This document shows positions 5,351 to 53,089 of a stretch of 64,000 nucleotides of DNA, in pieces (position 1 is the stretch's first letter; every line of letters starts with the position of its first letter). The notes under the pieces are model-generated. The model was not told the DNA's origin. It made no database searches and was given only the letters and a program-made list of their open reading frames with translations. Source of the stretch: an uncultured Planctomycetia bacterium (GTDB lineage: Bacteria; Omnitrophota; Gorgyraeia; JACOVV01); assembly GCA_964372345.1 (NCBI GenBank), contig CAYJQR010000001.1:36825-100824 (forward strand). Direction: 5' to 3'. Both the position numbers and the translations under genes were made by a program.

Positions 5351-6945
5351 GAAAAACGGAAAATGGAAAATGGAAAGTGGAAAGTGGGAAAGACAAAAAT
5401 CCATTTTCCGGGTTTTATGTCTTGTTGATTGTTTTTGCTTTATCCATTTTCCATTCTCTATTTTCCATTTTCCCTGTTTACGCCGAGGCCAGCAAAAGTT
5501 CCAAGTTCACTCTCGATGCCGGAGGATTTGTTTCTGGAGGGGGCAGCGCTGAAAGCCCGACAATCAAATCTCAAGCCGGAAACCTGGGAGATTTCGCGGG
5601 AACAACCACCACCGCGACTTCCTCTGGAACTTCCTCATCGGGCGCGGCTTCCGCCGTGACTACGGTGAATCCGGGGCTTCTCCAGGTCATCGTGGGAGAA
5701 GGCGCTCATAGTGATTATCCTTTTGATATCAAGGAAATCATTGCTAAGGATTCTCCCATGGGAAGCGCCATCACTGCCGCCGACTGGCAGAAGGATAATG
5801 ATCCCTATTTCTACTGGACGGTTTATGGTCCGCCGGAAGGAGTCATCGGTTACAGTTTTGCTCTGAACGCGATTCCCGATGAAACAGTGGATGTGAGCGA
5901 TTCCAGTTTTTCCTATGCCGGGAAGAATATCTCCGACGGCAAGCATCTTTTCCGTGTCATTGCCCAGAGCGCCGCCGGCAAATGGGGAAGAGAAGGGGCT
6001 TTTGAAATCTGGATTGACGCGACGGCTCCATCGGTGGTTTCCTTTAATCCCGGGAACAAGGCCCTGCTGAATACGGCGACACCCCAGATCCAAGTCGCTT
6101 TAAAAGATGCTGACAGCGGCGTCAACCCGGATTCCGTTGTTTTAAAGGTGAATCGCGCCACGGTTGAGGTCCCTTTTGACGACCAACAGGGGGGCGTTAC
6201 TTACACGCCTGCTTCTCCGCTAAAAGAGGGGATTAATTCGATCACGTTCGACGCGCGGGATAAAACAAATAACGTCGCGGCGACTCTAGTCTGGAGCTTC
6301 ACCATTGATACCCAAGCGCCCGGCGGAAGCGTCGTCATCAATAACGGCGACGCGTCCACCACTTCTACCTCAGTCAAATTGACGCTCGCTGCGGAAGACG
6401 CGACGACTTCGGTTAAAGAGATGATGATCAGTAATCAACCTGATTTCGGCGGGGCGCGCTGGGAACCTTTCGTTGGTTTGAAAGATTCGTGGACACTCTC
6501 TCCGGTCAGCGGGGAACGGGCTGTCTATGTTAAATTTAAAGATGAAGCGGGCAATGAATCCGGCGCCTACAGCGACCCCATCGAATTGGTGATCATCGCT
6601 CCGGACACAACCATCACCAGCGGCCCTTCCGGGGTCACCGATCAGACAGCGGCGGCTTTCACTTATTCCGCTTCTGAGTCCGGCAGTTCTTTCAGGCGTC
6701 AAATTGACGGGGGGGATTGGTCGGAGTGGGGGACTGAAACCTGGGTGACGTTCACCGATCTTAAAAGGGGAAATCACTATTTCGGCGTCAAGGCCGGTAA
6801 AGATGTGGATGGCAATGGCACGATTGACGCCGACGAGGAAGATCCGACCCCCGCGACGCGAAGCTGGACGATCAGTGAAAGCGGCGGAACAGAAGCGATT
6901 AACTTACCACCGGAAAAGCCAGTGAAATATTGGTACAAAGAATAG
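5347..6945 (+). CDS. Secreted protein with Ig-like/Big-like beta-sandwich repeats. Possible pilus-associated adhesin or T2SS substrate.
   Basis: The N-terminal signal peptide is largely encoded by heptamer element A3 (hydrophobic core FYVLLIVFALSIFHSLFSIFPVYAEA). The sequence is Thr/Ser-rich with repeated modules reminiscent of bacterial Ig-like domains. The ATGA start overlaps the upstream gene. Confidence 0.5.
   Translation: MRKTENGKWKVESGKDKNPFSGFYVLLIVFALSIFHSLFSIFPVYAEASKSSKFTLDAGGFVSGGGSAESPTIKSQAGNLGDFAGTTTTATSSGTSSSGAASAVTTVNPGLLQVIVGEGAHSDYPFDIKEIIAKDSPMGSAITAADWQKDNDPYFYWTVYGPPEGVIGYSFALNAIPDETVDVSDSSFSYAGKNISDGKHLFRVIAQSAAGKWGREGAFEIWIDATAPSVVSFNPGNKALLNTATPQIQVALKDADSGVNPDSVVLKVNRATVEVPFDDQQGGVTYTPASPLKEGINSITFDARDKTNNVAATLVWSFTIDTQAPGGSVVINNGDASTTSTSVKLTLAAEDATTSVKEMMISNQPDFGGARWEPFVGLKDSWTLSPVSGERAVYVKFKDEAGNESGAYSDPIELVIIAPDTTITSGPSGVTDQTAAAFTYSASESGSSFRRQIDGGDWSEWGTETWVTFTDLKRGNHYFGVKAGKDVDGNGTIDADEEDPTPATRSWTISESGGTEAINLPPEKPVKYWYKE
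5358..5473. repeat. Heptamer inverted-repeat miniature element, copy A3. It is longer than A1/A2 and has exact terminal inverted repeats GGAAAATGG ... CCATTTTCC.
   Basis: Sequence runs ggaaaatggaaaatggaaagtggaaagtgggaaagacaaaaatccattttccggg ... ccattttccattctctattttccattttcc. The interior has a nested palindrome (aagacaaaa / ttttatgtctt). Confidence 0.8.
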
Positions 6946-6980
6946 CGTATAGCGGTCAGCGTTCAGAAAAGACTTTTTAA

Positions 6981-7013
6981 CTGTACCCTGAACCCTGTAC
7001 CCTGTACCCTGAG
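6981..7013. repeat. (CCCTGTA/CCCTGAA) heptanucleotide tandem repeat, intergenic.
   Basis: Sequence is ctgtaccctgaaccctgtaccctgtaccctgag. A related copy cccctgtcccctgtaccctgaaac sits at 31974-31997. Confidence 0.85.
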
Positions 7014-7019
7014 TGCTAT

Positions 7020-8672
7020 ATGTCAACCTCGATCGGTCTGGATATCGGATGGCGGGCGATTAAACTGGTGCAGCTGGAGAAGTCGCCCAAAGGGATTCGC
7101 TTATTGAAGACGGGAGCGCATCTCATTCCTTACAAGGAAAAGGAAACGGAGTCCGAGCGGTTAGAGGCGATCACGAAAGGGATCGGCCAGCTGTTGTCAG
7201 AATTAAGAATCTCACCGTCCAGTTCCTTCAATTTAGCGGTGTCGGGCCAGTCTGTTTTTATCCGGACGATTCAAGTCATCGCGGTCAGCTATGAGAAATT
7301 AAGACAGCATATCCGTTTTGAAGCCGAGCAACATATCCCGTTTGCCCTCAACGAAGTTTTATGGGATTACTGTTTAGTCAATCCTGAGAGAAAGAAACAT
7401 CCGGGCCTTCAGGAAAAGAGGTCGGGGGAATGGCGGGTGATTCTGGCCGCCATTAAAAAGAACCTGGTGGACCGTCAGCGGGAGTTTATCAGCAGAATCA
7501 GAGGAAAATGCAGGCTCATTGACGTCGGCCCGATTGCTTTTCACAGCGCGTCCTGTTTCATGGACGCTCATTTTTTAAAACAGACCATCGTGTTATTGGA
7601 TATGGGGGCGAGAGGGACGAATTTAATCATCGCCGGCAATGGAGAGGTGTGGGTTCGGAGCTTTCCCCTTGGGGCTGACCGGTTCACCCAAGCGGTGAGT
7701 GAGAAGATGAAGATCGCTTTTAACGAAGCGGAGGTTTTGAAACAGCGGGTAGGGTTAGGGCCGGCGCCGGATTCTGGGGAGAGCGCCGTTGTGGAGGCGA
7801 TAAAACCGGCCGTTACCGATCTGTTGGAAGAAATCCAGCGGTCGCTGGAATATTATCATACTCAGGTGACGACGGCAGGCGCGTCCCATCCCAAGCCGGC
7901 GAAAATGGTACTGGGAGGGGGCGGAGCGCTGTTAAAGGGGATTGTGCCTCTCTTTCAGGAAAAACTGGGAACGCCGGTTGAATTATGGTCCGGGTTTCAG
8001 AATCTTTCAAGCCGCGTTTCCCCCGCTGTCTCTCAATGGCCGCAGGTGCAGTTTGGCACGGCGATGGGACTGGCCCTGCGCGGTCTGGTGACTTCCCCGA
8101 TTGAACTCAATCTTCTGCGGGAAGAGGTGAATCGTCATGCCGAGAGAAAAACCCTGCGGTTGTACGGAGGAGGATCACTTTTTCTAATATTGGGAATGCT
8201 GGGAATCATGGCTCAGGCGACTCGCAGTGAATATCAAAAGAAGGCGGGCTATCTGGAAGAGATCAAAAAGACGATAAAGACCTACCAGAGTTACGAACCC
8301 AAAATTAAGGAGCTGGAATTAAAAAACCATCTGTTAAAAAACCAGGTGAGTTCGCTCTACGGCGTTCTGCGGCAGAGGCAGACATGGCTGGATGTTCTCC
8401 AGCGTTTGGAGAAATCACTGCCCAAAGAAGTCTGGCTGATGAGCTATGAAGGAACCTTAGATCTGACTTCCGGTTCCCAGGACGCGACAGCGGGAGTCGT
8501 CAGGATTGTGGGACGATCCCTCTCCTATCAAGGGGTGACGGAGTTTGTTTCTAACCTCAAAAACTCGGTTCAATTCACTCAGGTCAAACCGGTTTCTTCC
8601 AATATTAAGAAGTCAGAAACTGGGGATGAAATTGTCGAGTTTCAAGTGGAGATGAAAATAGCATGGCAGTGA
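7020..8672 (+). CDS. PilM-PilN fusion: a PilM-like actin-fold domain, a transmembrane segment, then a PilN-like periplasmic domain.
   Basis: The N-terminus IGLDIGWRAIKLVQLE and about 370 aa match the PilM/FtsA-like fold. A transmembrane helix (LRLYGGGSLFLILGMLGIMAQA) and a coiled coil typical of PilN/GspL-M follow. Confidence 0.7.
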   Translation: MSTSIGLDIGWRAIKLVQLEKSPKGIRLLKTGAHLIPYKEKETESERLEAITKGIGQLLSELRISPSSSFNLAVSGQSVFIRTIQVIAVSYEKLRQHIRFEAEQHIPFALNEVLWDYCLVNPERKKHPGLQEKRSGEWRVILAAIKKNLVDRQREFISRIRGKCRLIDVGPIAFHSASCFMDAHFLKQTIVLLDMGARGTNLIIAGNGEVWVRSFPLGADRFTQAVSEKMKIAFNEAEVLKQRVGLGPAPDSGESAVVEAIKPAVTDLLEEIQRSLEYYHTQVTTAGASHPKPAKMVLGGGGALLKGIVPLFQEKLGTPVELWSGFQNLSSRVSPAVSQWPQVQFGTAMGLALRGLVTSPIELNLLREEVNRHAERKTLRLYGGGSLFLILGMLGIMAQATRSEYQKKAGYLEEIKKTIKTYQSYEPKIKELELKNHLLKNQVSSLYGVLRQRQTWLDVLQRLEKSLPKEVWLMSYEGTLDLTSGSQDATAGVVRIVGRSLSYQGVTEFVSNLKNSVQFTQVKPVSSNIKKSETGDEIVEFQVEMKIAWQ

Positions 8673-31187: not shown

Positions 31188-31248
31188 CGCCTCAGCCAAA
31201 GGCTGATCAGCCTCTTCAGCCAAAGGCTGATCAGCCTCTGGCTGAGGC
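31188..31248. repeat. GGCTGATCAGCC-type palindromic/tandem element, copy C2, intergenic.
   Basis: Sequence is gcctcagccaaaggctgatcagcctcttcagccaaaggctgatcagcctctggctgaggc. The unit is duplicated inside terminal inverted repeats. It is related to the element inside lnt at 16290-16345. Confidence 0.8.
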
Positions 31249-39816: not shown

Positions 39817-40950
39817 ATGTACTCCAGATTAATTGCCCCCCCAAAGGGGAAGAGCTTCTTTCTATTCGGGCCGCGGGGGACTGGAAAAACAACGTGGGTT
39901 AAAGCGGTCTTTCCTAACGCCCTCTATCTTGATCTTCTAGAAGCGGAACTTTTTAATGACCTTTTGGCTAATCCACAACGGCTGGAGAACTTAATCCCCC
40001 AATCGTTCAGCGACTGGATTATCATTGATGAAGTGCAAAAGGTCCCTGAGCTCCTAAATGAAGTCCACCGGTTGATCGAAAAATATAAATATCAGTTCAT
40101 CTTGACTGGTTCCAGCGCTAGGAAATTAAAGAAAAAGGGGCCAAACTTATTGGCAGGCCGCGCGTTAACCTACTCGATGCATCCTCTGACAGCGATGGAA
40201 CTGGGGCGAGATTTTAACTTAGATCACTCTCTAAAATATGGACAACTTCCCTGTGTCTATAGCGAGGCAAACCCCAAAGGTTATCTGGAGAGTTATGTAA
40301 AGACTTACCTAGAGCAAGAAATCCAGCAGGAAGGACTCACAAGAAACTTGGGGGCTTTTTCGCGTTTTTTAGAATCGGCTAGTTTCTCACAGGCGGCCGT
40401 ACTCAATATTTCAGCGGTAGCGCGTGAGTGCGCTATCGAGAGAAAAGTAGTTGAGAATTATTTCACTATCTTAGAGGATTTATTAATTGCGTATCGAATT
40501 CCTGTTTTTACAAAAAAAGCTAAAAGGCGATTGGTCACCCACTCAAAGTTTTATTTTTTTGATGTTGGGGTTTATCGTGTTTTAAGACCGATGGGACCTT
40601 TGGATATGCCTGAATCCGCCGAAGGGGCGGCATTGGAGGGGCTTTTGTTTCAGGAATTGAATGCGATCAATGCCTATTTTGATCTGGGCTACAAGATCTA
40701 TTTCTGGAGGACCTCCAATCAAGTGGAGGTTGATTTTGTGTTGTATGGGAATAAGGGATTGAGAGCGTTTGAGGTGAAACGGACCCGGAAAATCTCAAAC
40801 TCTATGCTAAAAGGACTCAAGGCGTTTTTAGAAAACTATCCACTAGCTAAAGCCTATTTCCTTTATGGTGGAGAACGCCGTATGCGGGAAGGGAAAATTG
40901 AGATTATTCCAATGGATTCCGCGCTCAAAAATTTACCCTCACTTCTCTAG
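39817..40950 (+). CDS. AAA+ ATPase with a C-terminal DUF4143-like domain.
   Basis: Walker A FLFGPRGTGKTT and Walker B IIIDEVQK. The 377 aa architecture is typical of the ATPase (AAA+ superfamily)/DUF4143 family common in defense islands. Confidence 0.75.
   Translation: MYSRLIAPPKGKSFFLFGPRGTGKTTWVKAVFPNALYLDLLEAELFNDLLANPQRLENLIPQSFSDWIIIDEVQKVPELLNEVHRLIEKYKYQFILTGSSARKLKKKGPNLLAGRALTYSMHPLTAMELGRDFNLDHSLKYGQLPCVYSEANPKGYLESYVKTYLEQEIQQEGLTRNLGAFSRFLESASFSQAAVLNISAVARECAIERKVVENYFTILEDLLIAYRIPVFTKKAKRRLVTHSKFYFFDVGVYRVLRPMGPLDMPESAEGAALEGLLFQELNAINAYFDLGYKIYFWRTSNQVEVDFVLYGNKGLRAFEVKRTRKISNSMLKGLKAFLENYPLAKAYFLYGGERRMREGKIEIIPMDSALKNLPSLL
40833..40950. repeat. 118-bp direct repeat, copy 1. 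This is the 3' end of the ATPase gene.
   Basis: About 97% identical to 42527-42654. Confidence 0.9.
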
Positions 40951-40974: not shown

Positions 40975-42276
40975 ATGTCTGGGGCGTGGGCAAATAAAAA
41001 ATTCGCCGAAGATATCCAGTCAGTAAACCAAGACCTGAAAAATTTGAACCATGATAAACCCTTGAGGAAAGGTCTTGAAGGGAGTGATATGGCGCAAGAT
41101 TCTATAAAATGTCCTAAATGCGGGGAGGCAATCCCTCTTTCTGAGGCGTTGTCGCAGGATATTGAAGAACGCGCCCGCCGGAAATACGAGGCGCAATTAT
41201 CTGAAAAAGAAACCGAATACCAAGCTCTGCTGAGAAAACAGCGCGAAGAACTTGCGATAAAACTTAAAAAACAGGCAGAAGAAGCTGTCAGCGCTGAAAT
41301 GACCGATCTGAAAGAGCAAGCGGAAGAGACGAAACGCAAGCTGAAACAAGCCAATGAGAATGAGTTGGCGTTGCGCAAAAAACAGCGCGAATTGGAAGAG
41401 AGGGAAAAAACGCTTGAGTTGGAAACCGCCAGAAAGATAGACGAAGAACGGCGAAAGATCGAGACGGATGTTTTCACGCGACTTGAAGAACAGCATAAGC
41501 TGAAAGACGCGGAAAAAGATAAGAAACTTTCGGATGCCTTCAAGCAGGTTGAAGAATTAAAGCGAAAGATGGAGCAAGGTTCCCAGCAGATGCAGGGAGA
41601 AGTGCTTGAATTGGAACTAGAAGAATTATTTAAGCGAGAGTTTCCTTTTGATGTCATCGAACCAGTTTCCAAAGGGGTGCGGGGCGCTGATATTGTCCAA
41701 ACTGTCAAAACGCAATCCGGGCGCACGTGCGGGAAAATCCTCTGGGAAACAAAGAGAGTAAAAAACTGGAGCGACTCCTGGGTTCAAAAGTTGAAAGACG
41801 ATCAGCAAGACGCGAAAGCGGATATTGCAGTCCTCGTTTCCGAGGCGCTTCCCGCGGGGTTTCATCACTTTCGGCAGATTCACAGTGTGTGGGTAACGGA
41901 TATTCCATCGGCCGTTAGCCTGGCTTTAGCCCTGAGAGTGGTGTTGATTCAAGTGGCCAGTGCCAAGGAAATGGAGAGTGGCAAAGATGATAAAAAGGAT
42001 CTCATTTATCGTTATATAACTGGTACTGACTTCCGTAATCGGGTCACTGCGATCATCGAAGGATTTCGGACAATGAAAGAAGACCTTGAAGCGGAGAAGC
42101 GAGCCATGCAGAGGATTTGGGGAAACCGGGAAAAGCAGATCGAAAGGATCATTTTCAACACGGCCGGGATGTACGGGGATTTAGAGGGGTTGGCTGGGGC
42201 GGCCTTGCCGCAGATTAAGATTCTGGAGTTGCCAGTAGGGGAAAATATAGAAAAGAAGACAAGGGAGACAGAGTAA
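40975..42276 (+). CDS. DUF2130-like protein: an N-terminal zinc ribbon, a long coiled coil and a C-terminal PD-(D/E)xK-like motif.
   Basis: CPKCGE zinc ribbon, an EK-rich coiled coil and GADIVQTV...GKILWETKR (a D...E-x-K pattern). The start may be the ATG at 41089. Confidence 0.55.
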   Translation: MSGAWANKKFAEDIQSVNQDLKNLNHDKPLRKGLEGSDMAQDSIKCPKCGEAIPLSEALSQDIEERARRKYEAQLSEKETEYQALLRKQREELAIKLKKQAEEAVSAEMTDLKEQAEETKRKLKQANENELALRKKQRELEEREKTLELETARKIDEERRKIETDVFTRLEEQHKLKDAEKDKKLSDAFKQVEELKRKMEQGSQQMQGEVLELELEELFKREFPFDVIEPVSKGVRGADIVQTVKTQSGRTCGKILWETKRVKNWSDSWVQKLKDDQQDAKADIAVLVSEALPAGFHHFRQIHSVWVTDIPSAVSLALALRVVLIQVASAKEMESGKDDKKDLIYRYITGTDFRNRVTAIIEGFRTMKEDLEAEKRAMQRIWGNREKQIERIIFNTAGMYGDLEGLAGAALPQIKILELPVGENIEKKTRETE

Positions 42277-42432: not shown

Positions 42433-42654
42433 TTGTTCCTCTCCCCACCTGCCTACCCGATAAAACCTTCTGGCAAACTCCATGGGTTTGGGGGTAAAAT
42501 GAGGGGAAAAGAGAACCGGTCTCATTTCCTATTAGAAAACTATCCACTGGCTAAAGCCTATTTCCTTTACGGTGGAGAACGCCGTATGCGGGAAGGGAAA
42601 ATTGAGATTATTCCAATGGATTCCGCGCTTAAAAATTTACCTTCACTTCTCTAG
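42433..42654 (+). pseudogene. 3'-terminal remnant of a DUF4143 ATPase gene. This is the second copy of the direct repeat.
   Basis: The last 37 codons (YPLAKAYFLYGGERRMREGKIEIIPMDSALKNLPSLL) are identical to the C-terminus of the 39817-40950 gene. There is no upstream ATPase body. Confidence 0.7.
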
Positions 42655-42674
42655 GGCCTATGAGGTAACAACGA

Positions 42675-45056
42675 ATGTCAAACGAAGCAGACACTTGCAG
42701 GCGATATGTTTTACCCAAGCTCTATGCGGCTGGTTGGACAGACGATCAGATATCAGAGCAAAAATATTTTACGGATGGCCGAATAATAATAATTGGTAGC
42801 GCCTGCAAGCGAAGAAAACAAAAAAGAGCAGATTATCTTCTGCGGTATCGCCGCGACTTCCCCATAGCTATTATCGAGACCAAAGCAGATTATAAAAGCG
42901 CCGGCGACGGCATGCAGCAAGCAAAAGAGTATGCGGAAATTCTTGGGTTGAAGTTCGCGTATTCGACCAACGGAGAGAGGTTTATAGAACATGATTACAC
43001 AACTGGGATTGAGCGCGAACTTTTGGAATTGCCGTCGCCGGATGATCTGTGGCAAAGATATAGAAAGTCAGAGAGCATAACGGAAGAAACCGTTGCCGGC
43101 AAGCTTTTAACTCCGTATTATTACAATCCCGATAAAGAACCTCGTTATTATCAGCAGATAGCGATCAATAGAACCGTACAATATGTTTTAAAGGGGAAAA
43201 GACGTATTTTGATCACCCTGGCGACAGGAACAGGCAAAACAGAAGTGGCTTTTCAAATTGCCTGGAAATTGTGGAACGCGAAATGGAACAAGACGGACGA
43301 TGGAAGAAAACCAAGAATCTTATTTTTGTCAGATCGGTCTATCCTGGTTGACGATCCCAAGGATAAAACATTTATTCCGTTTGGAGACGCGCGCCATAAA
43401 ATTGACGGGGAAGCGATAAAAAGCAGGGAAGTGTATTTTTCGCTATATCAATCCATCGCTAAGGACGAAAGGCGACCGGGGCTGTATAGAGAATATTCCC
43501 CTGATTTCTTCGATCTTATCATTATTGATGAGTGCCATCGCGGGAGCGCTGCCGACGAAAGTAACTGGAGGGAGATCTTAGAATATTTTGAACCCGCGTA
43601 TCAAATCGGCATGACCGCAACTCCATTAAGGGAAGACAACAAGGACACCTATAAGTACTTTGGCAATCCAATTTATACTTACACGTTAAAACAAGGAATA
43701 GACGACGGTTTTCTCGCGCCTTACAAAGTGCACCGCGTTGTTACGGAAGTGGACGCGACCGGGTGGAGGCCCGAACAAGAACAAAAGGACCGGTATGGCA
43801 GAGAGATTCCCGATGGTGAATACAGCACAAAAGATTTTGGCCGTATTTTAGCCTTACGGCCGAGAACCGAAGCGGTTGCTCAGCATTTAACAGATTTCCT
43901 CAAAAAAAAGGACCGATTCGCCAAAACTATAGTGTTCTGTGAAGACCAGGAAGAGGCCGAAGAAATGCGCAGGATATTAAACAACCTGAATTCCGACTTA
44001 GCGCAACAATATCCTGATTTTGTAGTGAGGATTGTCTCGGAAGAAGGGTCTGTTGGACGCGGCCATTTGAGTAAATTTCAGGAGTTGGAGACATTAACCC
44101 CAGTCATTGTCACGACAAGCAAGTTATTAACGACGGGTGTTGATATTCAAATGTGCAAGAATATCGTCCTGTATAAAGTCATAAACTCGATGACTGATTT
44201 TAAGCAGATTATCGGCCGTGGAACACGAGTACGCAGCGATTACGGCAAGCTCTATTTTAACATTATTGATTATACTGGCAGCGCGACGCGCCTGTTCGCA
44301 GACCCCTCTTTTGACGGCGAACCCGCACTCTTGACACAGGAAGAAATCGACACGCTCGGTAAAGTAAAAGAAGGGAGCCAAGTGATTCTAGCTCCTGAAG
44401 AAGCCAAAGAATATAAAAAGGCCGATGAAGAAGTAACAATAGACGATCTCGTTGTCTGTGACCTCCCCGATGGACAGCGCGAAAGAAGAAAATTCTACGT
44501 GGATGACGGTAAGAGGATCAAAATTATTTACGATTATGAACAGCATTTAGACGCCAACGGCAATAAACTGCGAGTCGTAAAATACACAGAGTATACGGCT
44601 GAAAAAGTGCGTTCAATGTTCACTTCCGCGGCGGCGCTTCTTTCAAAATGGCAAGTGGCCGAAGAGCGAACGGCAATTATCGAGTTCCTACAAGATAAAG
44701 GGATTACTTTTGAAGAACTTGTCAAAGCGACAGACCAAGAAGACGCGGATCATTTCGATCTTCTCTGCCATGTAGCTTTTAATGCCCCTTTGCGCTCGCG
44801 CAGGGAGCGGGCTGAACGTTTAAGAAAAGGGAAAGTGGATTTCTTTGAATACTTTTCTCCAGAGGCCCGGCAGATCCTAAATGAAATACTGGATAAATAT
44901 GTCGAGTTCGGTACAGAACAGTTTAAAGTCCCGGATATTCTTAAAGTAGATCCAATTGCCCGCCACGGAAACGTTATTGAAATTGCATCTTTGTTTAGCG
45001 GGCCGGAAAAGCTCAGAGAGGTCTTTGAAAAGCTTCAAACACTTTTGTATAGCTAG
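42675..45056 (+). CDS. hsdR: Type I restriction enzyme R subunit.
   Basis: The N-terminal Mrr-like nuclease region (CRRYVLPKLYAAGW, IIETKADY), SF2 helicase motif I (LATGTGKT) and the DEAD-box motif IIIDECHRGS. Confidence 0.85.
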   Translation: MSNEADTCRRYVLPKLYAAGWTDDQISEQKYFTDGRIIIIGSACKRRKQKRADYLLRYRRDFPIAIIETKADYKSAGDGMQQAKEYAEILGLKFAYSTNGERFIEHDYTTGIERELLELPSPDDLWQRYRKSESITEETVAGKLLTPYYYNPDKEPRYYQQIAINRTVQYVLKGKRRILITLATGTGKTEVAFQIAWKLWNAKWNKTDDGRKPRILFLSDRSILVDDPKDKTFIPFGDARHKIDGEAIKSREVYFSLYQSIAKDERRPGLYREYSPDFFDLIIIDECHRGSAADESNWREILEYFEPAYQIGMTATPLREDNKDTYKYFGNPIYTYTLKQGIDDGFLAPYKVHRVVTEVDATGWRPEQEQKDRYGREIPDGEYSTKDFGRILALRPRTEAVAQHLTDFLKKKDRFAKTIVFCEDQEEAEEMRRILNNLNSDLAQQYPDFVVRIVSEEGSVGRGHLSKFQELETLTPVIVTTSKLLTTGVDIQMCKNIVLYKVINSMTDFKQIIGRGTRVRSDYGKLYFNIIDYTGSATRLFADPSFDGEPALLTQEEIDTLGKVKEGSQVILAPEEAKEYKKADEEVTIDDLVVCDLPDGQRERRKFYVDDGKRIKIIYDYEQHLDANGNKLRVVKYTEYTAEKVRSMFTSAAALLSKWQVAEERTAIIEFLQDKGITFEELVKATDQEDADHFDLLCHVAFNAPLRSRRERAERLRKGKVDFFEYFSPEARQILNEILDKYVEFGTEQFKVPDILKVDPIARHGNVIEIASLFSGPEKLREVFEKLQTLLYS

Positions 45057-45089
45057 AGCATAATTGTTACATTTTATGTAATAATTATG

Positions 45090-45118
45090 TTGACAAACAG
45101 CTTCTTATATGGCATATT
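45090..45118 (+). promoter_or_regulatory. Candidate promoter for abiEi-abiEii.
   Basis: TTGACA (45090-45095), a 17-nt spacer and CATATT. It overlaps the palindromic operator. Confidence 0.4.
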
Positions 45119-45147
45119 TGTTACAGAGAACGTAACAAATATGCCAT
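45109..45147. promoter_or_regulatory. Perfect 16-bp inverted-repeat operator overlapping the abiEi start codon.
   Basis: ATGGCATATTTGTTAC agagaac GTAACAAATATGCCAT. The right arm ends in the ATG at 45146. Confidence 0.7.
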
Positions 45148-45760
45148 GAGTACTCTATACGATAGAAGACAAAATCTTTATAACGTTGCCTCAACCCAAC
45201 AGGGGTATTTCTCTGCCAAGCAAGCCCTTTCTTGCGGTTATTCCCACCGTCTCCAGCATTATCATAAGGAAAAGGGCCAATGGGTTGAAATAGAGCGGGG
45301 TTTCTTCCGCCTTTCCAATTTCCCATCCTCGCCCAATGAGGATCTTGCTCGTTGGTCCTTTTGGAGCCGTAATCGTGAAGATATTCCTCAAGCTGTTGTT
45401 TCTCACGAATCGGCCCTTGCTATTCATGAACTCAGCGATGTGATTCCTTCAAAAGTTCACCTTACGATTCCACCCTTTTTCCGTAAGAAAAGCGCCGGAG
45501 GGTGCGTCCTTCATAAAAATATCCTCCTCCCGGAGGTTATAGAAAAACGAGAGGGGTTCTTTGTGACAACTCCTATGCAAACAATTATTGATGTGGCTGA
45601 TAGCGCTCTTAGCCTTGAACAGCTTGAACAAGCAGTTCGGGACGCTCTGGCCAAGGGGCTTATGGTCCCGGCCAATATCGCAAAAGCAAAGATGTCAGCC
45701 GCCGCTCGTGAAAAGATAGGTCTGATTATGGAGAACATTAAAAGAAAGCCGGTTTTATGA
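45146..45760 (+). CDS. abiEi: AbiEi-type antitoxin / transcriptional regulator (type IV TA system).
   Basis: A 204 aa product with an N-terminal winged-helix region. It is translationally coupled to the downstream nucleotidyltransferase and sits behind a palindromic operator. Confidence 0.65.
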   Translation: MSTLYDRRQNLYNVASTQQGYFSAKQALSCGYSHRLQHYHKEKGQWVEIERGFFRLSNFPSSPNEDLARWSFWSRNREDIPQAVVSHESALAIHELSDVIPSKVHLTIPPFFRKKSAGGCVLHKNILLPEVIEKREGFFVTTPMQTIIDVADSALSLEQLEQAVRDALAKGLMVPANIAKAKMSAAAREKIGLIMENIKRKPVL

Positions 45761-46632
45761 AAAACGAGAGAACGTATATGTCCGCTGCTTCTTTTCGCCA
45801 AGCCCTTGAAGAGCGCCTGCACAATATTTCCAAGGAACAGAAAGTTCCATTGGAAAGGTTGCGTAAGCGCATTGCGTTTGATCGTCTTCTGGCCCGATTG
45901 TTCGATAGAAAAGCGCATCCCGATCCTCAATGGTTGCTTAAAGGAGGTTATGCTTTAGAAATTAGGTATCTCAATATTGCCCGGGCGACTAAAGATATTG
46001 ATATGGCTATTCCCAGCATGGTCGGGCCTTCTCCTGGAACAGTAAGAGGTATTTTACAAAGGTCGGCTGAGATAAATCTCGGAGATTGGTTTGCGTTTCT
46101 TATAGGAGAACATTCTCAAGAATTAAGCCAGGCAGTTTACGGCGGTTGGCGCTATCCGGTAGAGGCGAGGTTGGCAAATAGAGAATTCACAAAATTTCAT
46201 GTTGACGTTGCCATCGGAGACGTCGTCGTTTCAGAGGCCGAGTGGTTCAAAAGCACAGAGTTATTAAGTTTCGCGGGGATTCCTCCCGCAGAGGTGGCGC
46301 TTTTCCCGAGGGATCAACAGTTCGCTGAGAAAGTTCATAGTTATACTTTCCCGCGAGACCCAAAAGAGATGTCGCGGGTTAAAGACCTTGTTGATATGGT
46401 TTTGTTGATTGAGAACGGCATGCCAAGTTCTGCGCATGTAGTAAAAGCGGTTAAGGCAACGTTTAAAAGAAGAAAAACGCATACTGTGCCTGACGCGCTC
46501 GTTTCTCCACCTGCTTCATGGGAAGCAAGTTATCGGGAAATGGCGTTAGACTGCGGAGTAAAATGCAAGACCGTTGAAGAAGCGTTTAAGTCAGTTTCTT
46601 CCTATTGGGGAAATTTATTTAAGAAGGAGTAA
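45757..46632 (+). CDS. abiEii: AbiEii/AbiGii-family nucleotidyltransferase toxin (DUF1814).
   Basis: A 291 aa product with a nucleotidyltransferase-fold GG...D.D region (LLKGGYALEIRY...TKDIDMAI). The ATGA overlap with abiEi is typical. Confidence 0.7.
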   Translation: MKNERTYMSAASFRQALEERLHNISKEQKVPLERLRKRIAFDRLLARLFDRKAHPDPQWLLKGGYALEIRYLNIARATKDIDMAIPSMVGPSPGTVRGILQRSAEINLGDWFAFLIGEHSQELSQAVYGGWRYPVEARLANREFTKFHVDVAIGDVVVSEAEWFKSTELLSFAGIPPAEVALFPRDQQFAEKVHSYTFPRDPKEMSRVKDLVDMVLLIENGMPSSAHVVKAVKATFKRRKTHTVPDALVSPPASWEASYREMALDCGVKCKTVEEAFKSVSSYWGNLFKKE

Positions 46633-46635
46633 ATA

Positions 46636-48210
46636 ATGATGACCAAAAAATCAAAAATTAAAATACCGCAAACAACGTCGGCGCAATTGAGTTCTATTAT
46701 AAAATCATGCCGCGATATCATGCGTAAAGATAAAGGATTAAACGGCGACGCGGATCGCCTTCCTATGCTTACCTGGATTATGTTCCTAAAGTTCCTCGAT
46801 GATATGGAAATGATGCGGGAAACCGAAAGCAAAATGGAAGGTAAAAAATATGTTCCGGCAGTTCACGCGCCTTATCGCTGGCGTGATTGGGCATCCAAAG
46901 AAGACGGCATTACCGGAGAAGAGCTGATTTCCTTCATCAATCATCAGGAATGCGTGCGGCCGGATGGCAGTCGCGGGCCGGGTCTGTTCACCTATTTACG
47001 GGCGCTTGAAGGCACCGGTCAAAAAAGAGATCGCCGTAACGTTGTTTCAACGGTTTTCCGCGGCACAGCAAACCGGATGCTTAATGGCTACCTTCTGCGG
47101 GATGTCATCAATAAGATCAATCAGATTCATTTTACCTCAACGGAAGAAATTCATACTCTATCCCATCTTTACGAAAGTCTTCTTAAAGAAATGCGGGACG
47201 CATCCGGAGACGCAGGCGAGTTCTATACTCCACGGGCAGTGGTCAAGTTGATGGTAGCGGTGGTCAATCCTCGGCTTGGCGAAACTGTGTTGGACCCGGC
47301 GTGCGGAACAGGCGGATTCCTTGTTGAGTCATTTGAGCATATCAAAAAACAGTGTAAAACAATTGCGGATCATAAAAAACTTCAAGAGGAGACGATCTTC
47401 GGAGGAGAGGCAAAGTCTTTACCGTATTTACTGTGTCAGATGAGTCTCCTTCTGCACGGGCTTGACTCTCCGAATATCGATCCGGGAAATTCCCTGCGGG
47501 TTCCCTTAAAAGAAATCGGTGATAAAGACCGCGTAGAGGTGATTCTGACCAATCCTCCTTTCGGAGGCGAGGAAGAAAAAGGCATTCAAGGTAATTTCCC
47601 TCAAGATAAACAGACGGCGGAAACCGCGCAACTTTTCTTACAACTGATTATGCGTAAATTGAAACGTCCCGGGCAGGGAAATAAAGGAGGCGGCCGCGCG
47701 GGCGTGATTGTTCCCAACGGCACGCTTTTTGGCGACGGCGTCTGCGCGCGGATAAAAGAAGAATTACTCAAGGAATTCAATCTTCATACGATCGTACGGC
47801 TGCCGAACGGTGTTTTCTCGCCATACACTTCCATACCGACGAATATACTCTTTTTTGACCGCGCCGGGCCGACAAAAGAAATCTGGTTTTATGAACATTT
47901 GCTTCCGGAGGGAAGAAAAAACTACACGAAAACAAAACCGATACAATTTGAAGAATTCCAATCATGCCTGGAATGGTGGGAGAAACGGGAAGAGAACGAA
48001 CGTGCCTGGAAGATCAAAGTCGAAGATGTTTTAAGATATGCCCAAGATGGTAATCTTATTTCAACCAACCTGGATATCAAAAACCCCAATACAGAGGACG
48101 CTTTTGAACATATGCCGCCGGAGAAGCTGATAGAGGATATTTTGGAGAAAGAAGAAAAAATTATGGTAATTTTGAGAGAAGTCAGTCAAATTCTAAAGGA
48201 AAAAATATGA
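46636..48210 (+). CDS. hsdM: Type I restriction-modification N6-adenine DNA methyltransferase subunit.
   Basis: An N-terminal HsdM_N helical domain, an AdoMet motif (DPACGTGGFLV) and the catalytic NPPFG. Confidence 0.9.
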   Translation: MMTKKSKIKIPQTTSAQLSSIIKSCRDIMRKDKGLNGDADRLPMLTWIMFLKFLDDMEMMRETESKMEGKKYVPAVHAPYRWRDWASKEDGITGEELISFINHQECVRPDGSRGPGLFTYLRALEGTGQKRDRRNVVSTVFRGTANRMLNGYLLRDVINKINQIHFTSTEEIHTLSHLYESLLKEMRDASGDAGEFYTPRAVVKLMVAVVNPRLGETVLDPACGTGGFLVESFEHIKKQCKTIADHKKLQEETIFGGEAKSLPYLLCQMSLLLHGLDSPNIDPGNSLRVPLKEIGDKDRVEVILTNPPFGGEEEKGIQGNFPQDKQTAETAQLFLQLIMRKLKRPGQGNKGGGRAGVIVPNGTLFGDGVCARIKEELLKEFNLHTIVRLPNGVFSPYTSIPTNILFFDRAGPTKEIWFYEHLLPEGRKNYTKTKPIQFEEFQSCLEWWEKREENERAWKIKVEDVLRYAQDGNLISTNLDIKNPNTEDAFEHMPPEKLIEDILEKEEKIMVILREVSQILKEKI

Positions 48211-49406
48211 AAAAGTGGGATAGATATAGCTTGGGAGAATTAATAACCTTAGAAAGAAGGCCTGTAGATGTTGAATTGGATAAAAGATATCAAGAAATCG
48301 GTATTTATTGTTTTGGTAGAGGAGTTTTTCATAAGCAACCGCGTACAGGATATGAAATAGGAAACAAAGCTCTCTTTTTAGTAAAAGAGAGAGATCTTAT
48401 ATTCCAAATAACATTTGCATGGGAGGGAGCCATTGCACTAATGAGTGATTCGGAAAATTGGATGTATGCGTCTACGCGTTTCCCGACTTTTCGTGCTAAT
48501 GAAAGAAAGTGCGATCCTAAATTTTTACTTTACTATTTCCGTACCCAGGAAGGGAGAGATCAGCTAGTAAAAATATCCCCTGGCTCAGCAGGAAGAAACA
48601 GAGTTCTAAGTCTCAAAAGAATGCCAGAGGTATTTATTCCACTCCCATCGCTTCCCGAGCAACACCGTCTCGTAGAATGTATCGAGGCAATCGTAGGTAA
48701 AATTGACGAGGCGAAAAGATTACGAGAAGAAGCACAGAAAGCAATAGATGCATTAATAGATGCGAAGCTACGGGGCCTAATTAATGAAAGCAACAAAAGA
48801 TACGAATGGGATTTCGGTCCTATTTCTAAATACGCAGAAGTCAATCCTTCTAGGCAAGGTCAGATCAAGTTGGCTGATAAAGATGTGGTCTCTTTTGTTC
48901 CTATGTCCGCTGTTGATGACATTACAGGTACCATCAAAGAGCGATTTATTAAACCCTACTATGAAGTTTCAAGAGGATATACATGGTTTAGAGAGGGGGA
49001 TGTTATATTCGCTAGAATTACGCCATGCATGGAGAATGGGAAATCGGCAGTTGCTGTTAATTTAGAAAACGGCCATGGATTTGGTTCCACCGAATTCCAT
49101 GTGTTAAGACCGGGGACTAAAATCTTAGCTGACTGGTTACATTTATTAATTCGCAGTAAAGATTTCAGAAGGGATGCGGAATCTTATTTCAAAGGGACAG
49201 CAGGTCAACAAAGGATCCCTCAAAGTTTTCTTGAAAAAAAAGAAATCCCCGCTCCACCGATACCAAAACAGAGGGAGTTAATAAATTATTTTAAGAAATT
49301 TACTGTGTGTCTTGCTGAAGAACACAAGATTGATGAAGAACGTCACGCCGAATTGAACGCTTTATTCCCTTCCGTATTAGACAAAGCCTTTAAAGGTGAG
49401 ACATGA
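48207..49406 (+). CDS. hsdS: Type I restriction-modification specificity subunit.
   Basis: A 399 aa product with two target-recognition domains separated by the conserved central helix (LPSLPEQHRLVECIEAIVGKIDEAKRL) and a C-terminal conserved helix. It is AT-rich, as is usual for hsdS. Confidence 0.8.
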   Translation: MKKWDRYSLGELITLERRPVDVELDKRYQEIGIYCFGRGVFHKQPRTGYEIGNKALFLVKERDLIFQITFAWEGAIALMSDSENWMYASTRFPTFRANERKCDPKFLLYYFRTQEGRDQLVKISPGSAGRNRVLSLKRMPEVFIPLPSLPEQHRLVECIEAIVGKIDEAKRLREEAQKAIDALIDAKLRGLINESNKRYEWDFGPISKYAEVNPSRQGQIKLADKDVVSFVPMSAVDDITGTIKERFIKPYYEVSRGYTWFREGDVIFARITPCMENGKSAVAVNLENGHGFGSTEFHVLRPGTKILADWLHLLIRSKDFRRDAESYFKGTAGQQRIPQSFLEKKEIPAPPIPKQRELINYFKKFTVCLAEEHKIDEERHAELNALFPSVLDKAFKGET

Positions 49407-52400
49407 TCCCTGTCTTTTTTTGCCATATCTGTGATGAGAAAGATAATTGTAGATTTGCGATTAGAATAGCTGAGAAGTTGCGAAAAGATATCACGGGAGT
49501 AGAACCATTTATTGCTTGCCAGGATGATAATTGGAACAATGCCAAAGAATTAAATACGGCATTAAATCACTGCTATCTTTTTATCGCAATAGTAAGCTCG
49601 GGGTTTCTGCAAAAGAATAATTGTGTTTCTGAATTGGAACAGGCAAGAGAAAGGAACCAAAAAAATGGGAAATTTCCTATTATTTTCCCGATACAATATC
49701 AATGCGACTCAAAAGTCATGGCCGATCTAGAGTTTTCTATAGATCAAGGTAAACAGACGGGAGAGAGATGGGTTGATTTCTCTAATGATAGCGAATATGA
49801 CGTCAAGTATGAAGAATTTTATAAAAGAATATATTCTACAATTCTTGATAGCAATCTGATAACCAACGAGGATTTTCACAAGGATTGTAAAGTTCTCGAT
49901 GTTGTTTTAAGAGAAGATGAGCCAACCTCGGGTTTCGTAAAGACAGCGATAGATTATTGCCGAAGGGGTGAAGAATATGGTTTTTATTTTTTTAAAAATC
50001 TTTCGAATCCAAAATGGCTAAGCCATTTATATGCGGCGGGATTTTTTAACAATAATCCCTCTCCTGTAGAATCTGAGAAAAATGCCGGCTACTATAATAT
50101 CAATATCCCTTTTTGGACGGTATTACCTTATCTAGAGAAAGTAGCAGAAAATCTTCGGGGTAGACCGACTTTTGTAATAATTGATATTATACGTAAGGTT
50201 ACAAGGCCGGTTGCTCCAGTAAAAAAACAAGACAACTATCACACCTGGTATTCCTTCATCAAGATCATGGCGAACCTGCCGCCTGATGTTATTCAATTGG
50301 AGGACATTGATCTCGTCGCTGACTGGCTGGAGAGTAGATTTGATGTTTCTCTTGTGATGCACGAAGTCGGCAGGACATTTTTGCCGAAACTGCTTTCCAC
50401 GCAAGGAGAAGACTTGCGGAAAGTTACGCGTCTTATCGAAATTGTTATAAATTCGATTAAGGTTGAAAAAAGACATAGCGTCGAAGTCCGTGGGCTTCAA
50501 GAGATGTTTGAACTGAATGCTTCACAATTGGGCGAGAAATGCGGCAAGGAGATTGTGGAAGTTCTTAAAAGGAAAATAGAGACAGTGATCGCCGCGGAAG
50601 ACGATACATACAGCTATATATGGCGGCCCGCTATTGAGGACCATGAGCAGAATGTTGGCGACGGCGAATACCGGCACATCTTGATTGCGGGCTTGCGGGA
50701 TGTGCTTTTAGGATTCGCCTCTAAACAAGATGCTTCAGGGATGATCCAGACGTTTTTCCAATCAGAAAAATACATTATCAGACGTATCGGATTATATGTT
50801 TTAGATAAGCTGTTTGAAAAGTTTAGGTATAAAGAATTGGCCGAACAGGCCATTCAAGATGAGATGAGAGAACTATTACTCAAGAGCAATTATCACCACG
50901 AATGGTATCTGTTTATAAAAACTCACTTTAATACTCTTTCAAAGGAGGTTCAAAAGAAGCTTATCGAGTATATCAGCACCCTAAAGGGAGATTGGCGGGA
51001 TGCCGCGGATAAGGAGAGATTTAATATAGAGCTTCGGCGCCAGTGGTTTGGCGCGATTCAATCCTCCGGATATCAACTGCCTGCCGAAATAAAACAACGA
51101 TATCGTGAAGGGATTAATGCTGAATCCGAACACCCAGAGTTTTTAGGTTATATGGGCCCTGTTTCGTGGGGGGATGAAAATGTCTTTTCCGTGAGTGAAT
51201 TATTGGCTCAAGGAAGCGCCGAAAACATTATTTCATTTCTTAATGGCTATCGGGGGAAGAACCGGTTTGGTAAACCGGCTATCCGTGAATCAGGGCAGTC
51301 TTTGAAAGCGGCCGTTAAGGCAAAACAGGATTTTTTTGAAGGAAATCTTGATAAATTTAAAGAGGTAAAATGGGAGTATTGGTACTACCTGTTGGACGCT
51401 TTTGAAGAGCTATGGGATGATAAAAAACAGATTGACTGGAATAAAGTACTAGCGTTTTGTTCGTCAATAGTCCATCAGGATTTCTTGTACCAAGAAGAGG
51501 AAAAGAAAGATAACCACCCGCTTTACCCTAAGGAAAGTTGGGTCATTTCTGTCATCGCAGACCTGATTAAGAAAGGGGTTCAGAATGATGAACGGACGAT
51601 GCCGGATGATTGTTTAGATAATGCCGAACAGATTATCAGGATCATGCTAGGGAAACAGAAAGCAGAGGCAACCGGGAAAGAAGATAGCGCTTTGAACGAA
51701 GCGATGAACACAACCAAAGGGCGCGTCTTAACGTGTTTCATCAGTTATGCCTTGCGGCGGTACAGAACTTATGAAAGGCTGCCTGAGAAAGGCATTAAAG
51801 AAAAGGAATCGTTCTGGGGAAAAATAGAACCTCTCTTCGACGAGGAGATCAAAAAAACAAAAGAAGGAAATTTTGAGTTTTCAAGCATTGCGGGGGCGTA
51901 TCTTCCCAACCTTTTTTATTTGAATAACGATTGGGCCGAGAGAAATATCAATCATATATTTTCACAAGAGGAAAAGCACTGGCGCTGCGCTATGGCGGGA
52001 TATGCGTATGTCAGTACTGTCTATTCAGTTATTTATGGCTTGTTGAAGAAGAACGGCAACCTTAAACGCGCTCTTGATACGGAATTTACCAATGACAATG
52101 TAAAAGAGCGGATCGTCGAAAATATCGCGGTCTCCTACTTAAGGGGGCAGGAGTCTTTAGACGGCGAAGGGAGTTTATTTAAGTACCTGCTTGAGAAATG
52201 GCAGGTAAAAAACATTGAAGATACTATTGATCTTTTTTGGGCTCATCGGGATGTCGAGTTAAATCGTGAACAGAGAGATCGAATATATGGCTTTTTGCGG
52301 TATTGTTTTAACCGCGTCAAAGGGCATGAAGAGGAAAACAAAGGGATCCTTTCCGATTTAAACCTGTTGGCCGTATTCTTGTGCGAAATCAACAATGAGC

Positions 52401-52702
52401 AAAAAGATTGGCTCATGCAATCTGTTCAACATGTAGAGGAACGCTATCACAGTTCATTCTTTCTGGAATACTTGGATAAATTAGCCGCTATTAACCCGAG
52501 AGAGGCGGGCGAAGTTTTCCTTGAAATGTTGAATAAAACTGTACCCCCATACAAGGAAGAAAATGTAACATCAATCGTTGAAAAAATCTACAAAGCCGGA
52601 TTCAAAGAGATAGCTAATCTAATCTGCGATAAATATAAGCGAAATGGGCATGACTTCTTAGATGACCTTTATAATCGGTATAATTCAGCTAACATTAAAT
52701 AG
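49403..52702 (+). CDS. Large (1099 aa) protein with an N-terminal TIR-like domain and a long helical repeat region of unknown function. Translationally coupled to hsdS.
   Basis: Residues 1-140 follow the TIR motif order: VFFCHICDEKD (betaA) ... VEPFIACQDD ... YLFIAIVSSGFLQKNNCVSELEQA ... KFPIIFPIQYQCDSKV. There is no P-loop or nuclease motif. GC content is about 40%. The ATGA start overlaps the hsdS stop. Confidence 0.55.
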   Translation: MIPVFFCHICDEKDNCRFAIRIAEKLRKDITGVEPFIACQDDNWNNAKELNTALNHCYLFIAIVSSGFLQKNNCVSELEQARERNQKNGKFPIIFPIQYQCDSKVMADLEFSIDQGKQTGERWVDFSNDSEYDVKYEEFYKRIYSTILDSNLITNEDFHKDCKVLDVVLREDEPTSGFVKTAIDYCRRGEEYGFYFFKNLSNPKWLSHLYAAGFFNNNPSPVESEKNAGYYNINIPFWTVLPYLEKVAENLRGRPTFVIIDIIRKVTRPVAPVKKQDNYHTWYSFIKIMANLPPDVIQLEDIDLVADWLESRFDVSLVMHEVGRTFLPKLLSTQGEDLRKVTRLIEIVINSIKVEKRHSVEVRGLQEMFELNASQLGEKCGKEIVEVLKRKIETVIAAEDDTYSYIWRPAIEDHEQNVGDGEYRHILIAGLRDVLLGFASKQDASGMIQTFFQSEKYIIRRIGLYVLDKLFEKFRYKELAEQAIQDEMRELLLKSNYHHEWYLFIKTHFNTLSKEVQKKLIEYISTLKGDWRDAADKERFNIELRRQWFGAIQSSGYQLPAEIKQRYREGINAESEHPEFLGYMGPVSWGDENVFSVSELLAQGSAENIISFLNGYRGKNRFGKPAIRESGQSLKAAVKAKQDFFEGNLDKFKEVKWEYWYYLLDAFEELWDDKKQIDWNKVLAFCSSIVHQDFLYQEEEKKDNHPLYPKESWVISVIADLIKKGVQNDERTMPDDCLDNAEQIIRIMLGKQKAEATGKEDSALNEAMNTTKGRVLTCFISYALRRYRTYERLPEKGIKEKESFWGKIEPLFDEEIKKTKEGNFEFSSIAGAYLPNLFYLNNDWAERNINHIFSQEEKHWRCAMAGYAYVSTVYSVIYGLLKKNGNLKRALDTEFTNDNVKERIVENIAVSYLRGQESLDGEGSLFKYLLEKWQVKNIEDTIDLFWAHRDVELNREQRDRIYGFLRYCFNRVKGHEEENKGILSDLNLLAVFLCEINNEQKDWLMQSVQHVEERYHSSFFLEYLDKLAAINPREAGEVFLEMLNKTVPPYKEENVTSIVEKIYKAGFKEIANLICDKYKRNGHDFLDDLYNRYNSANIK

Positions 52703-52756: not shown

Positions 52757-53089
52757 ATGATCCCACCACCTCTTTGGGCTGGCGCCGTTGGAGAAATAAA
52801 ATTGCACTATGTATATTTACTTCGCAGTGTAGAGAGCGGACAACTCTATCTTGGTTGGACGACAGATCTCCAACGGCGCCTGAACGAACATAACAATGGG
52901 GATTCACTAGCGACTCGTAATAGAGGTCCTTATGAATTGATTTATTTTGAGGCATATCGGTTCAGAGAAGAAGCCGTGGCGAGGGAACAGTCGCTTAAAA
53001 AACATCCCAATGTGATAAAGCAATTAAAGGCACGATTATATCGGAGTCTCGCCACGGCTTCTTCTGTCCCCAAAGAGGTGGTGGGATGA
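52757..53089 (+). CDS. GIY-YIG nuclease superfamily small protein.
   Basis: HYVYLLRSVESGQLYLGWTTDLQRRLNEHN is the GIY-YIG signature. An alternative TTG start lies at 52802. The gene is bracketed by inverted ATCCCACCACCT motifs. Confidence 0.75.
   Translation: MIPPPLWAGAVGEIKLHYVYLLRSVESGQLYLGWTTDLQRRLNEHNNGDSLATRNRGPYELIYFEAYRFREEAVAREQSLKKHPNVIKQLKARLYRSLATASSVPKEVVG

Follow-up and report, generated by a model that had tools for sequence, protein, structure and literature searches.

AbiE is classed as a type IV, and has recently been proposed as a type VII, toxin-antitoxin system. We analyzed an AbiE pair, abiEi and abiEii, that lies inside a type I restriction-modification (R-M) operon on a 64-kb stretch of DNA from an uncultured bacterium (contig CAYJQR010000001.1; this whole stretch is called the window below, and positions are counted from its first letter). 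In Streptococcus agalactiae, abiEi and abiEii form a bicistronic unit of overlapping genes, AbiEii carries the DUF1814 motifs I (hGG/S), II (DxD), III (K) and IV (+DxxD), and AbiEi represses PabiE by binding inverted repeats over its -35, -10 and +1 (PMC3985639). In Mycobacterium tuberculosis, Rv2827c of the Rv2827c-Rv2826c pair (MenA4/MenT4-type) binds two promoter-overlapping inverted-repeat pairs within -1 to -131, one monomer to each repeat and four monomers in all (PMC7319586). Co-oriented defence or toxin-antitoxin genes between hsd genes have been described as well, namely PrrC in EcoprrI (PMC12707154) and the Phd-Doc pair tvrAT in the pneumococcal tvr type I locus (PMC6265443). The AbiE module, an operator in the style of AbiEi and Rv2827c, and embedded accessory genes in type I loci are each already known. 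A literature search that was thin on subscription journals gave no description of AbiE, DUF1814 or COG2253 genes between hsdR and hsdM, nor of an antitoxin promoter serving hsdMS, and a conserved AbiE/R-M regulatory arrangement is apparently undescribed. We consider it likely that the locus holds a complete AbiE toxin-antitoxin and abortive-infection module within a type IB-like R-M operon, and that this module has its own autorepressed promoter, P_abiE, which also drives hsdMS.

The AbiE module and its R-M genes

The genes are read on the plus strand in the order hsdR (42675-45056), abiEi (45146-45760), abiEii (45757-46632), hsdM (46636-48210) and hsdS (48207-49406), and the identities of HsdR, AbiEi, AbiEii, HsdM and HsdS are confirmed at the sequence level. 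An earlier note on this DNA, made from the letters alone, had placed an AbiE pair between hsdR and hsdM; Pfam gene calls bear this out, and the architecture is conserved rather than a one-off. HsdR, the restriction subunit, matches ResIII (1.3e-37), EcoEI_R_C (7e-29), Helicase_C and HSDR_N in Pfam and REase_I in PADLOC (1.6e-218); its EcoEI/type IB-like C-terminus, with the EcoEI_R_C domain, and its length of 793 amino acids (aa) are the two features that point to R-M family IB, as a lead. HsdM, the methyltransferase subunit, matches N6_Mtase (7.5e-64) and HsdM_N, and HsdS, the specificity subunit, carries two Methylase_S stretches and has two target-recognition domains. The open reading frames (ORFs) of hsdR, hsdM and hsdS are all intact, and the three type I R-M subunits are present.

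AbiEi, encoded by a 204-codon ORF, scores 27.1 bits against Pfam AbiEi_4, where the cutoff is 25 bits. The PADLOC matches are far stronger than those in Pfam (E-values of 6e-62 for AbiEi and 1e-84 for AbiEii). With AbiEi alone as the query, a search of Protein Data Bank (PDB) sequences gave nothing better than E~0.8, so the assignment of its fold needed a family profile and structure prediction. A profile of 49 AbiEi relatives matches 6Y8Q, the sequence of the S. agalactiae AbiEi crystal structure, at E 1.2e-5. The AlphaFold model of AbiEi has a predicted local distance difference test score (pLDDT) of 93, and Foldseek searches of the PDB with this model returned full-length matches to 6Y8Q (2e-8, template modelling (TM) score 0.60) and to 1ZEL, which is Rv2827c (5e-5); only four PDB matches reach E<=1e-3, all of them chains of 6Y8Q or 1ZEL. 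The two reference proteins also differ from it: the AbiEi of the window is ~16% identical to 6Y8Q, and Rv2827c is larger (293 aa), with a TM-score of 0.45 when normalised to its length.

AbiEii, a 291-aa DUF1814 nucleotidyltransferase, matches Pfam AbiEii at 6.6e-26 and aligns end to end with M. tuberculosis MenT3 (Rv1045; E 6e-8). Its catalytic residues are intact (G63-G64, T78, D80, D82, K192 and K209-D210-L-V-D213), and T78, D80 and D82 stand in register with S78, D80 and D82 of MenT3, of which S78 is the phospho-acceptor (PMC11375011). By homology, AbiEii is therefore predicted to be a MenT3-like nucleotidyltransferase toxin. It would presumably be neutralised through AbiEi-induced auto-phosphorylation of T78, a mode of toxin neutralisation for which there is precedent (bioRxiv 10.64898/2026.01.19.700257; PMC11375011), and the module would be expected to act in phage defence. 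The pair thus shows the features of AbiE that can be examined in sequence, namely two co-oriented genes with the antitoxin first, the AbiEi fold and the DUF1814 toxin motifs.

The genes are closely packed. The start of abiEii overlaps the stop of abiEi by 4 nucleotides (nt; ATGA), 3 nt separate the abiEii stop from the hsdM start, which is preceded by AAGGAG, and hsdM and hsdS overlap by 4 nt. The overlap of abiEi and abiEii is shared with S. agalactiae; in contrast to that module, the present one is enclosed by a type I R-M operon and has hsdM directly behind abiEii. Rv2827c, too, has no R-M linkage. PrrC and tvrAT resemble the insert in position, but they belong to other protein families, and the control of PrrC is post-translational, through its contact with the R-M enzyme, whereas the insert described here brings a promoter and a repressor that lie before hsdMS. 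We rejected membership in the PrrC/RloC type of guardian, as the embedded proteins match AbiEi and AbiEii only and have neither an ABC-ATPase-like N-domain nor an anticodon nuclease domain.

A candidate promoter and palindromes upstream of abiEi

The gap between hsdR and abiEi is 89 nt long. A promoter scan with an E. coli-like sigma-70 consensus, applied here to the DNA of an uncultured organism, identified a -35 hexamer TTGACA (45090-45095) and, after a 17-nt spacer, a -10 hexamer CATATT (45113-45118) with TG before it, both on the plus strand (score 10/12). This candidate, P_abiE, is the sole plus-strand promoter-like match between 44167 and 48989 to an E. coli-type consensus that may not suit the host; terminator-like matches in the scanned region were at chance level. 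Judging from the spacing, transcription would start near 45125.

Two palindromes flank and overlap this promoter. The downstream one, IR2 (45109-45147), has perfect 16-nt arms (45109-45124 and 45132-45147) around a 7-nt spacer and reads ATGGCATATTTGTTAC-AGAGAAC-GTAACAAATATGCCAT, with a core of CATATTTGTTAC-N7-GTAACAAATATG. The -10, the presumed start of transcription and the 5′ untranslated region all lie within it, and its final two bases are the A and T of the abiEi ATG (45146-45148). No perfect short-range inverted repeat in the window has longer arms. From the base composition, about 3e-4 repeats of this kind would be expected by chance, and the longest perfect arm across 20 shuffles was 12 nt, compared with 16 nt in IR2. 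The earlier note had proposed a palindromic operator over both the promoter and the start codon. The perfect 16-bp repeat, its end on the AT of the ATG and the -10 within it all hold, but the TTGACA lies outside IR2, 13 nt upstream of it and between the two palindromes, so that only the -10 is inside.

The same claim had envisaged a single palindrome, and there it was incomplete. A repeat search revealed a second one, IR1 (45059-45089), that had been missed, and a half-site search and comparison with close relatives bear it out. Its 14-nt arms (45059-45072 and 45076-45089) pair at 13/14 positions (93% complementary), and in the 12-N7-12 form it reads CATAATTGTTAC-ATTTTAT-GTAATAATTATG. IR1 begins 3 nt past the stop codon of hsdR and extends as far as the -35. 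The two palindromes share one anatomy, CATAWTTGTTAC-N7-GTAACAAWTATG, and together offer four half-sites, the starts of which lie 19 nt apart inside each palindrome and 54 bp, or about five helical turns, apart between IR1 and IR2. Allowing at most one mismatch, the CATAWTTGTTAC half-site is found at four places in the 89-nt gap and at five in the window as a whole, where 0.30 copies are expected, and five half-sites per window were reached in 0/100 shuffles. With two mismatches the count is at the level of chance (29 in the window versus 22.3 +/- 4.6 expected). We found no further AbiEi boxes elsewhere in the window, including the region upstream of hsdR. Next in length among the perfect inverted repeats of the window are those at 31200 (AGGCTGATCAGCCT, 10-nt spacer) and 33451 (GTAGGGGCGGGGT, 1-nt spacer).

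A scan of a genome collection with the AbiEi family gave 80 loci from many phyla (42-59% identity), 79 of them with usable upstream sequence; gene starts in these loci were assigned by script. Counting as strict an inverted repeat with arms of at least 10 nt and at most one mismatch, we found one at -50 to +6 of the abiEi start in 44/79 loci, as against 31/1580 shuffles (2%), and in 42 of these 44 the repeat ends at -7 to +4 of the start codon. A strict repeat at -110 to -54 is present in 13/79 loci, and IR1 is kept in the closer relatives. The consensus anchored on the dyad centre is ttg..tGcA.AAT.cTTa.A.t.a.T.taAggaTT.TGCA, in which the 'ttg' of the -35 is conserved at a fixed distance (66 loci) and the ATG follows 17-20 nt from the centre. 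The left arm contains a -10-like hexamer with a -35 placed 16-18 nt upstream in 52/80 loci, and the right arm contains a Shine-Dalgarno-like tetramer in 59/80. In three Elusimicrobia loci (L031, L034 and L036) the ATG falls within the right arm, 13 nt from the dyad centre, and the leader must therefore be very short.

The site is conserved in its outer part, and its inner core varies by lineage but does so symmetrically (TTACA, TTATA, TCCAA, TTCAA, GTCCAAA). Four positions from the centre, the two arms are complementary in 90% of 67 distinct loci, through C:G (18), A:T (26) or T:A (16), compared with 35% in column shuffles, and compensatory changes that keep the symmetry occur in much the same way at positions 5, 6, 8 and 13. 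The closest relative, L085, whose AbiEi is 85% identical, retains both palindromes with a paired change from GGC...GCC to AGC...GCT. The same palindrome is conserved at free-standing abiE loci. The conserved position, the symmetric covariation and the precedent of AbiEi and Rv2827c together support an operator role, and IR1 and IR2 are very probably AbiEi operators, to which we infer that AbiEi binds. The arrangement is not identical to either precedent: S. agalactiae has one 23-3-23 repeat as its operator, where the window has a pair of 12-N7-12 palindromes of which the downstream member extends to the start codon, and the repeats bound by Rv2827c are 23 bp long and 13 bp apart within a pair. 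With its four half-sites, the layout of IR1 and IR2 is nevertheless of the type seen in Rv2827c, with its two inverted-repeat pairs and four bound monomers.

These observations provide the basis for a model of P_abiE control, in which the AbiE module carries a sigma-70 promoter in the gap behind hsdR. By analogy to S. agalactiae AbiEi and Rv2827c, an AbiEi monomer would occupy each of the four half-sites through its winged helix-turn-helix (HTH). Occupancy of IR1 would abut the -35, and occupancy of IR2 would cover the -10, the start near 45125 and the start codon. Because bound AbiEi would cover the -35 flank, the -10 and the start, RNA polymerase would be excluded and P_abiE autorepressed. 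The suggestion of the earlier note that this is the arrangement expected for AbiEi autorepression thus gains support from conserved position and covariation as well as from precedent.

The hsdR-hsdM junction and competing explanations

To follow the arrangement in relatives, tblastn of the window proteins was run on the 80 AbiEi-anchored loci. The order hsdR-abiEi-abiEii-hsdM(-hsdS) was found in 11 of them, from Omnitrophota, Planctomycetota, Anaerolineae, Elusimicrobia, Nitrospirota and Eisenbacteria; most AbiE relatives have no R-M linkage. A metagenome scan anchored on HsdR gave 58 evaluable loci, in which hsdR is followed directly by hsdM in 41, AbiEi lies between them in 9 and other cargo does so in 8. 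The 9 loci with AbiEi comprise every evaluable locus whose HsdR is at least 70% identical to that of the window, plus one distant locus. Across the scans, the architecture was seen at a total of at least 20 loci. The other cargo (at L098/L099, L110-L112, L117 and L129/L156) consists of an Mrr_cat endonuclease, an HTH_66/DUF433 and PIN_10 pair, an IS200 Y1 transposase and a 504-aa ORF (L117 8374-9888) that matches no Pfam or PADLOC family. In this HsdR family, the junction between hsdR and hsdM serves repeatedly as a slot for cargo. Annotated plasmids contain AbiEii relatives, and the best two, from Simkania and Deinococcus, belong to free-standing pairs rather than R-M-embedded ones.

The spacing at this junction differs with the presence of AbiE. 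In the AbiE-less loci where the two genes adjoin, the gap from hsdR to hsdM runs from -11 to 58 nt with a median of 11 (n=38), which leaves no room between the genes for a promoter. In AbiE-bearing loci, the gap from hsdR to abiEi is 72-249 nt and houses the promoter and the putative operators. At the other end of the module, the gap from abiEii to hsdM is -4 to +25 nt in 8/9 relatives with both starts called, similar to the 3 nt of the window; the ninth, L031, has an abiEii truncated by a frameshift (6617-7450, with a remnant that runs on to 7615). A further locus, L003, was left out of the nine, as the script had put its hsdM start inside abiEii. Two loci, L087 (8421-9160) and L124 (8402-9150), have abiEii deleted to a 16-codon stub (MAPLSQRYKTAAAFRHR*), and in each of them abiEi is retained with its promoter and the two palindromes, directly ahead of hsdM.

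Since hsdM follows abiEii by 3 nt and AbiE-less relatives have no intergenic space, P_abiE appears to be the only dedicated promoter before abiEi-abiEii-hsdM-hsdS, and it is probably the dedicated hsdMS promoter, with hsdMS predicted to be co-transcribed with the module. The proposal of the earlier note that R-M and Abi expression are coupled, with internal regulation of hsdM and hsdS, is thereby strengthened at the level of sequence, by the gap of -4 to +25 nt, the lack of another consensus promoter in the scanned region and the toxin-less loci. Insertion of AbiE would provide a second, hsdR-independent and autoregulated promoter for the modification and specificity genes. AbiEi would then set the expression of hsdM and hsdS independently of hsdR, allowing a burst when the operon enters a naive cell and a repressed steady state thereafter.

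Several points weigh against this reading. The call of P_abiE depends on an E. coli-type consensus, whereas the sigma-factor specificity of the host may differ, and its -10, CATATT, is imperfect. Such a consensus scan could also overlook promoters within the abiEii coding sequence. The AAGGA Shine-Dalgarno that most relatives have in the right arm of IR2 is missing from the window (45125-45145) and from L085, so the translation signals of abiEi are weak in both. The dyad centre used for the covariation was picked for maximal symmetry, which inflates the paired percentages somewhat, though not by the observed margin. Moreover, hsdR is co-oriented and has no terminator after it, and read-through could supply hsdMS without P_abiE. 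Finally, in a neighbour-joining tree of AbiEi the R-M-embedded modules are spread over at least six clades, with free-standing ones interspersed among them. The junction must therefore have been colonised, or the module exchanged, repeatedly, and because of this spread we rejected the idea that AbiE entered the R-M operon just once, in an ancestor. The interleaved tree suits a permissive cargo slot equally well as functional integration.

This last point leads to the alternative that survives best, a possible though on the whole unlikely one, in which AbiE is an independent passenger of a permissive slot and controls only itself, hsdMS being transcribed mainly by read-through from hsdR or from a cryptic promoter in abiEii, and the coupling has no regulatory meaning. 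The variety of other cargo at the same junction, the scatter of embedded AbiEi over the tree and the failure to find a terminator after hsdR are all consistent with it, and AbiE-less relatives, with their 11-nt gap, apparently run hsdRMS as a single operon. Against this, every lineage whose abiEii is intact keeps its gap to hsdM at -4 to +25 nt, and the toxin-less loci have retained abiEi and the promoter rather than shedding the whole insert. AbiEi on four sites just past hsdR would, in addition, obstruct read-through polymerases.

We also considered that the palindromes act as RNA. They would form hairpins in read-through RNA from hsdR, stopping or attenuating it or hiding the abiEi start, and only messages from P_abiE, which have no left arm, would be translated. 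RNA from 45050 to 45165 is indeed predicted to fold as two hairpins (-38.7 kcal/mol, z = -7.2) and the transcript from the inferred start to be unstructured (z = -0.56), and G:T mismatches between the arms are about twice as frequent as A:C. That excess, however, coincides with the positions at which the left arm is constrained to read as an extended -10, TGTAWAAT. No Rfam family was matched in 44800-46900 at E<=1, the palindrome is kept at free-standing abiE loci too, and homologues of AbiEi have been demonstrated to bind such repeats as DNA (PMC3985639, PMC7319586). A main role as an intrinsic terminator of hsdR was rejected, as neither hairpin is followed by a U-tract and the terminator scan was silent at both. 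An RNA element is on these grounds improbable.

A guardian or addiction role, in which AbiE fires as a back-up upon loss or inhibition of R-M (by anti-restriction sensing like that of PrrC, or by post-segregational killing) and the shared promoter ties release of the toxin to R-M shut-off, is encouraged by the precedents of PrrC in EcoprrI, which is switched on by inhibition of restriction (PMC12707154), and of the role proposed for Phd-Doc (tvrAT) in the tvr locus (PMC6265443), by the intact catalytic residues of abiEii in the window and by the tight, conserved gene linkage, but it is very doubtful given that there is no sign here of contact between AbiE and Hsd proteins, that L087, L124 and L031 have lost or broken abiEii next to intact R-M genes, and that the majority of AbiE relatives have no R-M linkage.

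Genes around the operon and what the arrangement may mean

The region looks like a defence island. The start of a 1099-aa ORF (49403-52702, plus strand) overlaps the hsdS stop by 4 nt, and this gene is probably co-transcribed with hsdS. Its product matches TIR_2 in Pfam at residues 12-135, and residues 180-1094 match positions 310-1225 of the 1227 of PADLOC Dsr1 (E 6.8e-153), which suggests a Dsr1-like body with a TIR domain in the place of SIR2. The gene is missing from most related loci, and hence lies outside the AbiE/R-M unit there; L089 and L139 have a stretch downstream of hsdS that is 40% identical to the protein. Just downstream of the gene is a stand-alone GIY-YIG protein of 110 aa (52757-53089). 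On the other side, a DUF2130 protein of 433 aa (40975-42276) lies just upstream of hsdR, and 42480-42655, just before hsdR, appears by eye to be the C-terminal remnant of a second ATPase of the DUF4143/AAA_14 type, the first being encoded further upstream at 39817-40950 (PADLOC candidate PDC-S01, E 9e-55).

Transcriptional regulation of type I R-M systems is poorly understood, and the control that is known is mostly post-translational (ClpXP, subunit assembly). R-M systems of the EcoKI type do have two promoters, one of which lies between hsdR and hsdM-hsdS and makes the modification genes independent of hsdR (PMC12707154). In the R-M family studied here, by contrast, the AbiE-less ancestral state has hsdR and hsdM ~11 nt apart, and the internal promoter arrives with AbiE. 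Control of an internal promoter by AbiEi would resemble the type II controller (C) proteins in function, not in ancestry. C proteins are small, of the Xre HTH type, and bind C-boxes that precede both their own gene and the restriction gene. We rejected membership in the C-protein-regulated R-M systems, as the regulator here has the AbiEi fold rather than an Xre-type one and precedes the modification genes rather than the restriction gene.

A broader proposal can be put forward only tentatively, and we regard it as rather unlikely in full. AbiEi may have been co-opted as a transcriptional controller of hsdM-hsdS in a clade of type IB-like R-M systems that is widespread and moves horizontally, with the hsdRMS operon turned into a two-promoter system. 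The burst upon entry would give methylation before restriction, followed by shut-down through AbiEi, and AbiEii would be released as an abortive-infection back-up once transcription from the shared promoter is cut off. The toxin-less loci would represent the end point of domestication.

Should the coupling prove incidental, what remains is another AbiE module within a defence island, its autorepression operator of the textbook kind. The elements of the locus are ordinary, and it is the conserved wiring, together with the toxin-less derivatives, that is worth testing, for which the 89-nt region with four half-sites, the natural toxin-less variants and at least 20 orthologous loci with co-varying operators are at hand. 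If the regulatory reading is true, the locus would represent a natural toxin-antitoxin regulator wired into an R-M operon, a type I functional counterpart of the type II C proteins, and a concrete case of two defence layers with one shared control point.

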